Shown here: piece after piece, positions 12,512-34,613 of the stretch
Numbering within the stretch: position 1 is the stretch's first letter
Layout: every line of letters begins with the position of its first letter
Source: Escherichia phage p000y
Sequence record: MK047718.1
Reading direction: 5' to 3' (one strand)
DNA length: 64,000 nucleotides
Translations under genes and position numbers: made by a program
The notes under the pieces: generated by a model
The model's database searches: none
What the model was told of the DNA's origin: nothing
The model's input: only the letters and a program-made list of their open reading frames with translations

Positions 12512-12522
12512 AGGAGGACAAC

Positions 12523-12972
12523 ATGGCCTACTCTGGTAAATGGGTCCCGAAAAATTTAAAAAAATACCGTGGAGACCATACCAAAATAACGTATCGTTCA
12601 AACTGGGAAAAATTCTTTTTCGAATGGTTAGATAAAAATCCAGAAATTATTGCATGGGGCAGCGAAACGGCAGTAATTCCATATTTTTGTAATGCTGAAG
12701 GTAAGAAACGTCGATACTATATGGACATATGGATGAAAGATGCATCAGGTCAAGAGTTCTTTGTAGAAATAAAACCAAAGAAAGAAACTCAACCACCTAT
12801 TAAACCGGTGAATCTTACAACTGCGGCTAAGAAACGTTATATGAACGAGATCTACGTGTGGTCTGTGAACTGCGACAAATGGAAAGCTGCCTCAGCTGTT
12901 GCTGAAAAGAGAAATATAAAATTTCGAGTTCTAACCGAAGACGGACTTAGGAAACTCGGATACAAGGGGTAA
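12523..12972 (+). CDS. 4: head completion protein gp4
   Basis: Start at ATG 12523 (AAGGAGG SD) inside track ORF 12379..12972; [11 protein letters not shown]... near-identical to T4 gp4 by recall. Confidence 0.93.
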
Positions 12973-12974
12973 TT

Positions 12975-13796
12975 ATGAGCATATTCCAAATTATATCTGA
13001 AGGCGTACAAGCCCCTAAGATTGCTCAGTCTATGAATGAAAGAAAATGGATTGAGATAGGATTAGAATACAAGAAAGCTAAAGAGAAAGGAATCACTGCA
13101 AAAGCATTTGCAGAATCAAAAGGAATAAAATACTCGTCGTTTACATCTGCAATGTCTAGATATGCATCATCTATTAAGACTGCACAGAAAATTGAAACGC
13201 TTGAATCTAAACCTAAAAATAAACTCAATAAGCAAGAACGTCAACTTCTGATGATAAACTCGTTTCGCAGTTCAATACGAGAAAAGATTAGAAATGAAGG
13301 CGCAGCAGTAAACAACAAATCATCTAAGTGGTTTGTTGAAACAATTAAGAAAAGTGTAAAAGGTCATAAAGTAGTCAAGCCTACGCCAGGCAAAATTTAC
13401 ACTTACGTGTATGATGCTAAACATAAAGATACTCTGCCATACTGGGACAGATATCCTTTGATTATTTATTTAGGATTAGGTAAACATAATTTGATGTATG
13501 GGTTAAACTTGCACTATATCCCACCTAAAGCACGACAACAGTTTCTTGAAGAATTGCTGAAGCAATATGCTAGCACAACTACTATTACTAATAACACAAA
13601 GTTGAAGATAGACTGGAGCAAGGTGAAAGGATTTCAAGGTGCAGACAAAATGATTAAAGCATACCTGCCAGGCCACATTAGAGGAACGATAACAGAAATA
13701 GCTCCTAAAGACTGGGCTAACATAATCATGTTACCTACTCAGCAGTTTATGTCAAAAGGAAAACGTTTCTCTGCGAATACTGTTTGGAAATCTTAA
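12975..13796 (+). CDS. 2: DNA end protector protein gp2
   Basis: 273-aa ORF; T4 gp2 is 274 aa; synteny 4-2-3. Confidence 0.88.
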
Positions 13797-30419: not shown

Positions 30420-30782
30420 ATGAAAGCATATCAAATTCTTGAAGGCACACACAAAGGCACTATTTATTTTGAAGACGGTACTCAAGCCCGGATTATTGTC
30501 TCTAAGACTTTTAAAGAAGACGCTATTGTAGACCCAGAAATTTTCTACGGTTTGAATGCCCGTGAAATTGAAATTGAACATCAACCTAAAGTTAAAATTG
30601 AAGGTGGTCAACACCTGAACGTTAATGTTCTGCGTCGTGAAACTCTGGAAGATGCAGTTAAGCATCCAGAAAAATATCCGCAGTTGACCATCCGTGTATC
30701 CGGTTATGCAGTTCGCTTTAACTCTCTGACTCCGGAACAGCAGCGTGACGTTATCGCTCGTACCTTTACTGAGAGTCTATAA
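30420..30782 (+). CDS. autonomous glycyl radical cofactor (GrcA/YfiD-like)
   Basis: 120 aa; C-terminal glycyl-radical motif RVSGYAV; C-terminal ~60 aa match my recollection of E. coli GrcA. Confidence 0.8.
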
Positions 30783-31561: not shown

Positions 31562-31611
31562 TTTACTTCTCCTCTAGTTGTGTTACTATAGACTTGTCAA
31601 CTAGAGGAGAA
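31562..31611 (+). promoter_or_regulatory. early promoter (TTTACT, 16 nt, TACTAT) embedded in a perfect 14-bp inverted repeat that contains the regB Shine-Dalgarno
   Basis: Arms TTCTCCTCTAGTTG (31567-31580) and CAACTAGAGGAGAA (31598-31611) flank the -10. Confidence 0.6.
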
Positions 31612-31617
31612 ATCAAA

Positions 31618-32076
31618 ATGACTATCAATTCGGAAGTTTTTATCCGCCGTAATAAACTCCGTCGAATCTTTGAAACGGAGTTCCGCAAAATAAATGCCAG
31701 TATAAAAGATGCTGCAAAGTCTCTTGGACTACCAGGCTTTCATATCAAGTATTCTCAACATCTCTTAGATCGTGCCATCCAGAGAGAAATAGATGAGAAT
31801 TACGTTTTTGAATTATTTCATAAAGTAAAAAATCACGTTAAAGAAGTTGCAGAATTTTTATCAATGCCGGCACGTCCAGATGTTGATGAAGATTTTGTCG
31901 AAGGTGTCGAGTATCGTCCAGGCCGTTTAGAAATAACTGACGGAAATCTTTGGTTAGGACTTACAGTTTGTCGCGAAAATCCGGCATTCAAAATGAAGAC
32001 TCTTCAATGTAGAATGGCTATTATTAACAGTAAACGACTACCAGGAAAAGCTTCTAAAGCAGTGATTAAAATCTAG
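31618..32076 (+). CDS. regB: endoribonuclease RegB
   Basis: MTINSEVFIRRNKLRR...KYSQHLLDRAIQREIDE closely matches T4 RegB by recall; 152 aa. Confidence 0.9.
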   Translation: MTINSEVFIRRNKLRRIFETEFRKINASIKDAAKSLGLPGFHIKYSQHLLDRAIQREIDENYVFELFHKVKNHVKEVAEFLSMPARPDVDEDFVEGVEYRPGRLEITDGNLWLGLTVCRENPAFKMKTLQCRMAIINSKRLPGKASKAVIKI

Positions 32077-32084
32077 AGGTAAAC

Positions 32085-32627
32085 ATGAGAAAAGCACTAC
32101 TCGCTGGTCTATTTGCTCTTTCGTTATCAGCACATAGCTCCGAGCATACTTTTAGTAATGTCCAACTCGATAACTTGAATTATGCTTATCAGTTTGGGGA
32201 ACAGTTTTCTAAGGATGGAAAATTTAAAACGCATGAAAATATGCATAAGAAAGGACTTGGATACATAATGGCCGCAATACTATGGCAGGAATCATCTGCC
32301 GGTATTAATCTTAAAGATAAGAAAGGTCACCATGCGTATGGAATGTTCCAAAATTATCTACCAACAATGAGGGCAAGAATTAACCAACTTGGTTATAATA
32401 TGACTGATGCCCAAATTAAGAAAATGCTATCTAAGCGGTCTAATTCAGCCAGATGGGCTTATATCGAATTTTCTTATTGGTTAAATATACATAACGGGGA
32501 TATAAGAAAAGCTATATCCTCATATAATGCGGGATGGAAGACAAGTGCCGGAAGTAAATATGCTTCTGAAGTCCTAGAAAAGGCTAATTACCTTAAATCA
32601 AATAAACTACTGGAAATAAAAGAATGA
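32085..32627 (+). CDS. secreted lytic transglycosylase-like protein (SLT motifs)
   Basis: Signal peptide MRKALLAGLFALSLSA; SLT motifs WQESS, YGMFQ, SYNAG. Confidence 0.65.
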   Translation: MRKALLAGLFALSLSAHSSEHTFSNVQLDNLNYAYQFGEQFSKDGKFKTHENMHKKGLGYIMAAILWQESSAGINLKDKKGHHAYGMFQNYLPTMRARINQLGYNMTDAQIKKMLSKRSNSARWAYIEFSYWLNIHNGDIRKAISSYNAGWKTSAGSKYASEVLEKANYLKSNKLLEIKE

Positions 32628-32971
32628 CCAAAATGTTGGCTTTAATAGTTAGCTTGGTTTCATTTAACGCTCTTGCTAATACTACATATACTGATGTAAC
32701 GGAGTATACAAACAGAACGGCGTCTGATTATTGTGGTAAAAGTCAAGAGTGTAAAGTAGATTTTTCACAAAAATTGTTATATGCGTATAAAGACGGAGAA
32801 AAAGACGGGGCGTCTAGTAGGTTCAAGGCGTCTACCTTAATTAAAAGATACTATAAAAAATGGCAAATATTAGAATGCTCGGTGGCGGAACCTAAAGATA
32901 AGGCAGCATGCAATTCTATGGTGGACCGTCTAGTTGACTCTTATAATAGAGGACTTGCAGCAAGTGATTAA
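32624..32971 (+). CDS. secreted hypothetical protein
   Basis: Signal peptide MTKMLALIVSLVSFNALA. Confidence 0.6.
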   Translation: MTKMLALIVSLVSFNALANTTYTDVTEYTNRTASDYCGKSQECKVDFSQKLLYAYKDGEKDGASSRFKASTLIKRYYKKWQILECSVAEPKDKAACNSMVDRLVDSYNRGLAASD

Positions 32972-33431
32972 AAACTATATCAAGGGCGATATTGTCGCCC
33001 TGTTTTCTAAAGGTAATAATATTGCTCATGGGTGTAATTGTTTTCATACAATGGGCGCCGGTGTAGCAGGCCAATTAGCAAAGGCTTATCCAAAAATTTT
33101 AGAAGCCGATAAACTTCAAACCGAATTCGGAGACAAGTCTAAACTCGGGACTTATTCGGTTTATGAAAAATATTTTAAGACCCATAAAGCTTATTGCTTT
33201 AATCTTTATACACAGTTTGAGCCGGGACCTAATTTTGAGTACTCTGCTTTAATGAATTGTATAATAGAATTAAATGAATTCGGAAAGAATAAGATAATAA
33301 AGCCTGTAATTTATATGCCAAGAATTGGTGCAGGTATTGGTGGTGGAAACTGGGATGTCATCGAAGAGATTTTAGATACGTATTCTACTAAACTAGAAAT
33401 TGTGATTGTTGATTGGGAACCGTTATTATGA
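32934..33431 (+). CDS. macro-domain-like protein (possible ADP-ribose binding/hydrolase); start uncertain
   Basis: Motifs NNIAHGCNCFHTMGAGVAGQL and PRIGAGIGGGNW resemble macro-domain glycine-rich loops; only non-ATG starts available (TTG 32934, GTG 32964). Confidence 0.45.
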   Translation: MTLIIEDLQQVIKNYIKGDIVALFSKGNNIAHGCNCFHTMGAGVAGQLAKAYPKILEADKLQTEFGDKSKLGTYSVYEKYFKTHKAYCFNLYTQFEPGPNFEYSALMNCIIELNEFGKNKIIKPVIYMPRIGAGIGGGNWDVIEEILDTYSTKLEIVIVDWEPLL

Positions 33432-33640: not shown

Positions 33641-33843
33641 GTCAAACAAAAATTCTTACAGGTGCTAAATGCGAAAAATGCGAATGGCCTGTAGTTTTTG
33701 CTTTATGCAATGACGAAATGGCTTGTGATTTTGATTATTGGTGTTACTGTTCGAACAAAGGTTGTAGCAATCATAAAGGTGAAGGGTTTTACTCAGGGTT
33801 TTACCCTTACCCAGATTTCGTTAAAGAAGGTGAACCTAAATGA
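33631..33843 (+). CDS. Cys-rich small protein (putative zinc-binding)
   Basis: CEKCEW...CNDEMACDFDYWCYCSNKGC; AAGGTG SD. Confidence 0.55.
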   Translation: MAMSQTKILTGAKCEKCEWPVVFALCNDEMACDFDYWCYCSNKGCSNHKGEGFYSGFYPYPDFVKEGEPK

Positions 33844-34022
33844 AATTGACTAAAGAAGAGAAAACTAAACTGTTTGAACTTATCCATGACCTATTGGATG
33901 AGCAAGCAGCCACCAATGCGTATGATGAATATGCTCCTTTGACGGACGAAGAATATCAAGCATTGTTGGAATCATTTGACAGGAAAGAACAAGAACTCAT
34001 TGACTACGTGAATTCACTATAA
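33840..34022 (+). CDS. hypothetical protein
   Basis: 60-aa ORF. Confidence 0.5.
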   Translation: MKLTKEEKTKLFELIHDLLDEQAATNAYDEYAPLTDEEYQALLESFDRKEQELIDYVNSL

Positions 34023-34031
34023 GGGACTCTT

Positions 34032-34613
34032 ATGGCTAGTTTAATTTTTACCTATGCCGCTATGAACGCTGGTAAGTCTGCTTCATTACTTACTGCCGCA
34101 CATAACTATAAAGAACGTGGCATGGGTGTATTAGTTCTTAAACCGGCTATTGATACTCGCGATTCAAAAGGTGAAATAGTCTCTCGTATTGGTATTCGTC
34201 AGGACGCCAATATAATTACAAAAGACATGGATATCTTTGAATTTTATAAATGGGCTGCAGCACAAAAGGATATTCACTGCGTATTTGTTGACGAAGCTCA
34301 GTTCTTAACTACTGAAAAGGTGTATCAACTTAGTCGTATTGTTGACGTGTACAATGTGCCGGTAATGGCATATGGACTACGAACAGATTTTAAAGGTAAT
34401 CTATTTGAAGGTTCTCAAGCATTAATGGCTATTGCCGATAAGCTTGTTGAACTTAAAGGTGTCTGTCATTGTGGTAAAAAGGCCACAATGGTAGCTAGAG
34501 TCACGGAAGACGGACTTCCAATTACAGATGGCAGTCAAATTGAAATTGGTGATACCGATAGATATGTGTCATTATGCCGGAAGCATTGGAATGATTTGAC
34601 AGGGTTGTTATAA
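34032..34613 (+). CDS. tk: thymidine kinase
   Basis: 193 aa; MASLIFTYAAMNAGKSASLL P-loop; near-identical to T4 Tk by recall. Confidence 0.93.
   Translation: MASLIFTYAAMNAGKSASLLTAAHNYKERGMGVLVLKPAIDTRDSKGEIVSRIGIRQDANIITKDMDIFEFYKWAAAQKDIHCVFVDEAQFLTTEKVYQLSRIVDVYNVPVMAYGLRTDFKGNLFEGSQALMAIADKLVELKGVCHCGKKATMVARVTEDGLPITDGSQIEIGDTDRYVSLCRKHWNDLTGLL

Follow-up and report, generated by a model that had tools for sequence, protein, structure and literature searches.

The macrodomain gene of Escherichia phage p000y is the orthologue of T4 tk.4 (adfM) and a probable eraser of DarT2 marks on phage DNA

DarTG systems block phages by ADP-ribosylation of DNA, and T-even phages carry an eraser for each DarT type, guanine marks being the target of AdfN, a NADAR protein, and thymine marks that of AdfM, a macrodomain. 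Earlier work had found that T2 and T4 without adfN, as well as T4 without both adfA and adfN, are still resistant to DarTG2, which led to the prediction of a further factor. A HIDEN-SEQ transposon screen for T4 genes that become conditionally essential on a DarTG2 host gave one significant gene, tk.4, and a clean tk.4 knockout left T4 sensitive to DarTG2; the gene was named adfM, for anti-DarT factor Macrodomain (bioRxiv 10.1101/2025.11.20.689424). The evidence on T4 tk.4 is genetic only, and the authors of that preprint write that enzymatic removal 'seems likely' (bioRxiv 10.1101/2025.11.20.689424). Erasure of DarT2 marks by a phage macrodomain has a precedent in phage PhiKZ, whose AdfM clears DarT2 marks in vitro (PMC13309987) and has N23 and K78 in its active site (Cell Rep 2026, PMC13309987).

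A lysine is essential for the activity of DarG and TARG1. SCO6735 of Streptomyces coelicolor, a cellular, non-phage macrodomain that is 54% identical to Bt_1257 of Bacteroides thetaiotaomicron, has a glutamine (Gln85) and acts on thymidine-ADP-ribose DNA at a higher rate than either DarG or TARG1; it rescues E. coli from DarT and does not cleave guanine-linked marks (PMC9411070). The Q85A mutant of SCO6735 is dead and the N27S mutant nearly so, and the mechanism proposed for it is water-mediated, with an Asn-locked Gln that arranges a water network (PMC9411070). Its mobile loop is 5 residues longer than that of DarG and TARG1, carries Lys89 and Lys93, and was proposed as the cause of its efficiency on DNA (PMC9411070).

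We compared these systems with a locus of Escherichia phage p000y (MK047718.1), of which a stretch of 64,000 nucleotides, hereafter the window, was analysed. On its + strand, an ORF runs from TTG 32934 to a TGA stop at 33429-33431, and our analysis established the fold, class, orthology, start position and active-site residues of its product. The genes of this region are the following:

31594-32076, + strand: regB (Pfam REGB_T4)
32085-32627, + strand: vs.1-like ORF, 180 aa
32624..32971, + strand: vs, annotated as valyl-tRNA synthetase modifier (PHROG 1256, annotations); its stop overlaps the macrodomain start
32964..33431, + strand: CDS of a stand-alone macrodomain protein, orthologue of T4 Tk.4 / AdfM, 155 aa
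33428..33640, + strand: tk.3 (DUF7202; Pfam, annotation)
between tk.3 and tk.1, + strand: tk.2 (Phage_zn_bind; Pfam)
33840-34022, + strand: tk.1
34032-34613, + strand: tk

The region from 31.5 to 34.7 kb of the window was 99.4% identical to Mosigvirus phages of the RB69-like T4 type, among them vB_EcoM_G53 and Shigella phage JK36. By tblastn, the macrodomain protein was present in 2841 phage records, with identities of 95% or more in Mosigvirus relatives and of 85% over the full length (100% coverage) in T4, where the gene is tk.4, and in RB27. The gene order vs / tk.3 / tk.2 / tk.1 / tk is common to T4 and the window. Like the p000y protein, T4 Tk.4 has 155 residues, is encoded between vs and tk.3, overlaps the end of vs and shares all of the family-invariant residues. 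The two differ in their start codon (ATG in T4, GTG in p000y), in the length of the vs overlap (4 nt against 8 nt) and in 23 amino acids, for example GIGKGNW in T4 and GIGGGNW in p000y. Judged from sequence and gene order, the p000y macrodomain gene is the orthologue of T4 tk.4 (adfM). An anti-DarTG2 macrodomain is already known, having been published for this T4 orthologue.

The absence of an ATG start and the overlap with the upstream gene, both pointed out in the original prediction, were confirmed by inspection. After TAG 32931, the in-frame start candidates are TTG 32934, TTG 32955 and GTG 32964; the 5' end of the ORF lacks an ATG, the earliest in-frame one being ATG 33051 (residue 30). 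Two features define the start:

32964..32966, + strand: predicted start codon GTG, from alignment with orthologue starts; predicted strand 1 (residues 2-8) comes directly after it
32949..32953, + strand: Shine-Dalgarno-like GAGGA, 10 nt 5' of the GTG; invariant in the alignment of the window, T4 and Lutter, and found also in VR26 and RB6

GTG 32964 aligned exactly on the ATG start of T4, Lutter, VR26, RB6 and phiR1-RT, and Gelderlandvirus CGG4-1 has a GTG at this position, as the p000y window does. As read from this alignment, GTG 32964 is the translation start, and the non-ATG start is real but ordinary. A start at TTG 32934 was rejected: it has no Shine-Dalgarno sequence, and the 10 additional residues are precluded in T4, where a stop lies in that region of the frame and the start is the aligned ATG. 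Also rejected was ATG 33051, to which the CDS is shortened in the record of phage NBG1 (1752-2132 of the retrieved NBG1 segment); that annotation is wrong, since a protein starting there would be missing two core strands as well as the invariant H22-G23-C24-N25-C26 motif.

The stop of vs (TAA 32969-32971) produces an 8-nt overlap with the macrodomain gene counted from GTG 32964. In T4, VR26, RB6, phiR1-RT and CGG4-1, the upstream gene ends 4 nt past the tk.4 start, and in the first four of these the start/stop overlap reads ATGA. The ATG of tk.3 and the TGA stop of the macrodomain gene also overlap as ATGA. Since the overlap with vs is conserved, coupling of macrodomain translation to the end of vs is plausible. 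Such overlaps are what the densely packed early genes of T4 normally show, and no expression level can be read from them. A promoter scan found no excess of sigma-70-like sites (11, against 12.9 expected from shuffled sequence).

Shortly after the start, a terminator scan returned one more feature:

32983..33008, + strand: GC-rich 8-bp hairpin AGGGCGAT-ATT-GTCGCCCT followed by GTTTTCT, over codons 7-15 of the macrodomain gene

The scan classes this hairpin as terminator-like, its RNA fold has a z of -2.5, and the NBG1 record carries a 'terminator' at the same place. The same hairpin, letter for letter, occurs in T4, Lutter, VR26 and RB6, although the RB6 and VR26 proteins have an overall identity of only about 59%, and codons 1-20 display a synonymous identity above that of the rest of the gene. 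It may act in transcription termination or in the tuning or coupling of translation, or it may mark a recombination boundary. In the minimum-energy folds, the U-rich stretch after the hairpin sequesters the Shine-Dalgarno sequence in the window, Lutter and RB6, and does not do so in T4 and VR26. With this pairing missing from T4 and VR26 and the hairpin itself from CGG4-1 and phiR1-RT, we make no claim of a conserved regulatory structure.

The original prediction had recognised a macro-domain-like protein from two glycine-rich loops, and this was confirmed. Both NNIAHGCNCFHTMGAGVAGQL and PRIGAGIGGGNW lie in the ORF, which matched the Pfam profile PF01661 (Macro) over positions 2-117 of 118 with 28.4 bits (gathering cut-off 22, E 1.7e-6). 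Among PDB sequences, phmmer found Bt_1257 (E 2.4e-10) and also Poa1p, SCO6735, DarG and TARG1. An AlphaFold2 model built with 117 homologues reached a mean pLDDT of 95.9 and a pTM of 0.91. Searched with Foldseek against the PDB, the best 50 matches of this model were all macrodomains or scaffolds designed from a macrodomain, and the top ones were TARG1, Poa1p (TM 0.80), DarG, Bt_1257 and SCO6735. Yeast Poa1p is characterised as an ADP-ribose-1''-phosphate phosphatase. The p000y protein is built as a three-layer alpha/beta macro fold whose ADP-ribose cleft is flanked by two glycine-rich loops, and in the model this fold extends throughout its 155 residues, with no extra domain. Its nearest neighbours in both structure and sequence belong to the ALC1-like class rather than to the MacroD, PARG or macroH2A types. 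The macro-domain assignment is correct, and the resemblance goes well beyond chance.

The functional positions are listed below, with residue numbers counted from GTG 32964:

33015..33077, + strand: glycine-rich loop region 1, residues 18-38, NNIAHGCNCFHTMGAGVAGQL, including the invariant N25 (33036-33038)
33213..33215, + strand: codon of Q84, the aligned counterpart of the catalytic lysine, as placed by hhalign comparisons of the family profile with TARG1, Taq DarG and Bt_1257
33318..33353, + strand: glycine-rich (diphosphate-binding) loop 2, residues 119-130, PRIGAGIGGGNW

Across the 117 aligned homologues, whose identity goes down to about 37%, G23, N25, C26, G33 and A35 of loop region 1 are invariant and H22, C24, M30 and G31 nearly so. 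In loop 2, P119, I121, G122 and G124 are invariant, and I125, G127, G128 and W130 nearly invariant. Loop 2 aligned with PRIGCGLDRLQW of TARG1, which places G126 opposite TARG1 D125 (hhalign).

The catalytic lysine of DarG and TARG1 was not found in the p000y protein, where the aligned residue is Q84. By hhalign, Q84 is aligned with DarG K80, TARG1 K84 and the Gln of Bt_1257, and SCO6735 has Q85 at that position. N25, which lies within an H-x-C-N motif, is aligned with DarG N22 and is equivalent to SCO6735 N27. Both N25 and Q84 are invariant (117/117 homologues). The loss of the lysine is compatible with activity, since the Gln-type SCO6735 is active on thymidine-ADP-ribose DNA, and we would not take the missing lysine as evidence against activity. 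The presence of the same Asn/Gln pair as in SCO6735 suggests the same type of chemistry. The scaffold around this pair is more compact, as the mobile loop of SCO6735 and Bt_1257 is absent: the phage family has a 6-residue hhalign gap opposite Bt_1257 YKDSKG, and the p000y protein has QFEPGPNFEY at this site, with no lysine. By our own reading of the sequences, it also has an Ala where SCO6735 has K34. A Gln-type mechanism in the p000y protein would be an extrapolation, because this protein has neither the lysine of DarG and TARG1 nor the lysine-bearing loop of SCO6735. The Q84/N25 site in T4-type AdfM goes beyond the literature that we consulted.

Set against the characterised enzymes, the p000y protein resembles SCO6735 and Bt_1257, which form the Gln-type subclass of ALC1-like macrodomains, in having a Gln at the position of the catalytic lysine together with its locking Asn. 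It differs from them in lacking the roughly 5-6 residues by which their Lys89/Lys93 loop, the hallmark of the subclass, is longer, and the identity to the phage family is only about 30%. In comparison with human TARG1 (OARD1), K84 and D125 are replaced by Q84 and G126. DarG (DarG2), the antitoxin macrodomain of DarTG2 systems (Thermus aquaticus, M. tuberculosis), has its catalytic lysine (K80 in T. aquaticus) where p000y has Q84, and its sequence similarity to the p000y protein is marginal (phmmer E 1e-3). The p000y protein has no C-terminal domain for binding DarT, and its gene lies between vs and tk.3 with no darT beside it. ICP1 AdfB was considered as a related macrodomain and rejected; it contacts DarT directly, which is also how the C-terminal domain of DarG works. 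CmdTAC is a strong defence against T4, and the CmdTAC paper contains nothing relevant on macrodomain reversal of mRNA ADP-ribosylation.

A functional parallel in phages is the AdfM of the chimallivirus PhiKZ (gp104), which is likewise a stand-alone macrodomain that counters DarTG2 and has the name in common. We compared its gene with window positions 32964-33431:

12518-13006 of the retrieved PhiKZ segment: PhiKZ gp104 gene

PhiKZ gp104 is DarG-like (E 9e-25 to Mtb DarG), and the p000y protein does not share its DarG-like N23/K78 site. The sole BLASTP match between the two proteins scored 24 bits over 23 residues. Against the family profile, hhalign gave gp104 a probability of 95.7% with its lysine unmatched, which is weaker than the matches of Bt_1257, TARG1 and DarG. 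Since PhiKZ gp104 is DarG-like and yet barely matches the p000y protein, the T4-type and PhiKZ AdfM look like separate recruitments from different ALC1-like branches. We tentatively suggest, at somewhat less than even odds, that T4-type AdfM represents a third ALC1-like active-site architecture, in which the Asn/Gln pair is held on a compact scaffold without the lysine loop, and that phages recruited it independently of the chimallivirus AdfM. If so, two proteins named AdfM would reach anti-DarT2 activity by different chemistry, and the substrate range of the T4-type enzyme might differ or widen to other ADP-ribose marks on nucleic acids or proteins.

Based on these findings, we consider it likely that the p000y protein is an AdfM that clears thymidine ADP-ribose placed by DarT2, using Asn/Gln chemistry of the SCO6735 type and starting at GTG 32964. 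According to this proposal, Mosigvirus Tk.4 / AdfM would be a single-domain, 155-residue ALC1-like macrodomain enzyme, expressed from the regB-vs-tk block of genes during early infection and translated from GTG 32964, probably in coupling with the end of vs. It would remove the ADP-ribose that host DarT2 (DarTG2) puts on thymidine of single-stranded phage DNA, so that replication continues. In the active site, N25 would hold Q84, and Q84 would organise a water network at the thymine-ribose bond. From the T4 and SCO6735 work we infer that the p000y protein acts against DarTG2, that it removes ADP-ribose enzymatically and that it uses the Gln/water mechanism. Other substrates are possible, including ADP-ribose-1''-phosphate, O-acetyl-ADP-ribose, Asp/Glu-linked protein marks and RNA ends.

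The original prediction had left open which mark would be erased, that of a host defence on phage DNA or the phage's own marks on host proteins. The former is supported by the genetics of the T4 tk.4 orthologue (DarTG2 screen and knockout), while nothing supports the latter. Reversal or tuning of the host-protein ADP-ribosylation performed by the phage's Alt, ModA and ModB is very improbable: the marks made by these enzymes are arginine-linked, a linkage that ARH/DraG-type enzymes remove and that ALC1-like macrodomains are not known to cleave. The T4 screen reports tk.4 solely as a conditional hit, on the DarTG2 host. What speaks for such a role is that T-even phages carry these transferases (PMC9503650) and that Asp/Glu-linked marks on proteins are further substrates of SCO6735 and TARG1 (PMC9411070). 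The main substrates might instead be small soluble ADP-ribose derivatives, such as ADP-ribose-1''-phosphate (as for Poa1p), O-acetyl-ADP-ribose or immune signals based on ADP-ribose, as the structural similarity to Poa1p and a general argument (PMC9503650) would have it. We regard this as unlikely, given that the lone known phenotype of the T4 orthologue is specific to DarTG2, a DNA modifier, that the 'phosphatase' label is a transferred annotation, and that N25 and Q84 are the residues critical in SCO6735, a proven thymidine-ADP-ribose DNA hydrolase. Roles on soluble derivatives and on DNA are not mutually exclusive and could coexist.

A block of DarT2 without catalysis, by binding of the toxin or shielding of ADP-ribosylated DNA in the manner of AdfB or the DarG C-terminal domain, would be in keeping with the partial inhibition of DarT by catalytically dead DarG, with the direct interaction through which ICP1 AdfB works, and with the fact that the T4-type protein is known from genetics and not from enzymology. 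It is nevertheless distinctly improbable for a protein whose 155 residues form a macrodomain and nothing else, and in which the residues unchanged throughout the 117 homologues belong to the ADP-ribose pocket and the catalytic positions, as expected under selection for enzyme activity. Next to negligible is the idea of a decaying gene, or of one translated only from the internal ATG 33051 into a truncated, non-functional product. The lack of a 5' ATG would suit it, as would the NBG1 record, with its CDS from residue 30 and a terminator over codons 4-17. Against it stand the position of GTG 32964, which coincides with the ATG start of five orthologues and follows a conserved GAGGA; the presence within residues 1-29 of two core strands and of the invariant HGCNC motif; and an identity of 96% or more of the full-length protein across many Mosigvirus records.

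With catalytic removal of thymidine marks as the preferred reading, the p000y window holds the Mosigvirus copy of the thymine-mark eraser and opens no new question. What our analysis adds is the start by orthology, the correction of mis-annotations, the Gln site on a short-loop scaffold and the distance from PhiKZ AdfM. In GenBank, tk.4 is labelled 'macro domain protein', 'phosphatase' (PHROG 335), 'O-acetyl-ADP-ribose deacetylase' or 'hypothetical protein', and the name adfM was absent from the records examined. We advise annotation as adfM / tk.4 from GTG 32964, and neither as 'phosphatase' nor as the internal-ATG truncation. For T4-type AdfM, enzymological work should be planned around a Gln-based site of the SCO6735 kind rather than a DarG-like lysine. 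The single name AdfM covers two distantly related phage macrodomains, one with a DarG-like catalytic Lys and one closer to Bt_1257/SCO6735 with a Gln.

Two allelic families of tk.4 occur in the T-even phages of E. coli, one in T4 and Mosigvirus (85% to p000y) and the other in RB6, VR26 and slur13 (about 58-60%). The first ~45 codons are near-identical in both families and the remaining two thirds diverge, a pattern that suggests mosaic exchange within tk.4.

The original prediction also placed two secreted proteins beside the macrodomain gene, and a crude hydropathy check bore this out to the extent that such a check can: the ORFs at 32085-32627 and 32624-32971 both have signal-peptide-like N-termini, with a basic start, about 12 hydrophobic residues and an AxA-like site. 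The vs product has the signal-peptide-like segment MTKMLALIVSLVSFNALA, followed by NT, and four cysteines in its mature part. T4 Vs has five cysteines in total, one of which lies within the signal-like segment. From these sequence features, Vs resembles an exported protein with disulfide bonds, a poor match for a modifier of a cytoplasmic enzyme. In HIDEN-SEQ, vs was the most strongly depleted gene in minimal medium (bioRxiv 10.1101/2025.11.20.689424). The vs.1-like ORF gave a weak match to SLT lytic transglycosylases, below the cut-off (18.8 vs 21.3 bits), and is mislabelled as 'endoribonuclease' in JK36. A few genes upstream of regB, the window encodes at 30420-30782 (+ strand) a stand-alone protein of 120 aa with a glycyl-radical domain (Pfam Gly_radical, E 2e-18), which is labelled 'pyruvate formate-lyase' in JK36 and resembles small spare-part glycyl radical cofactors.
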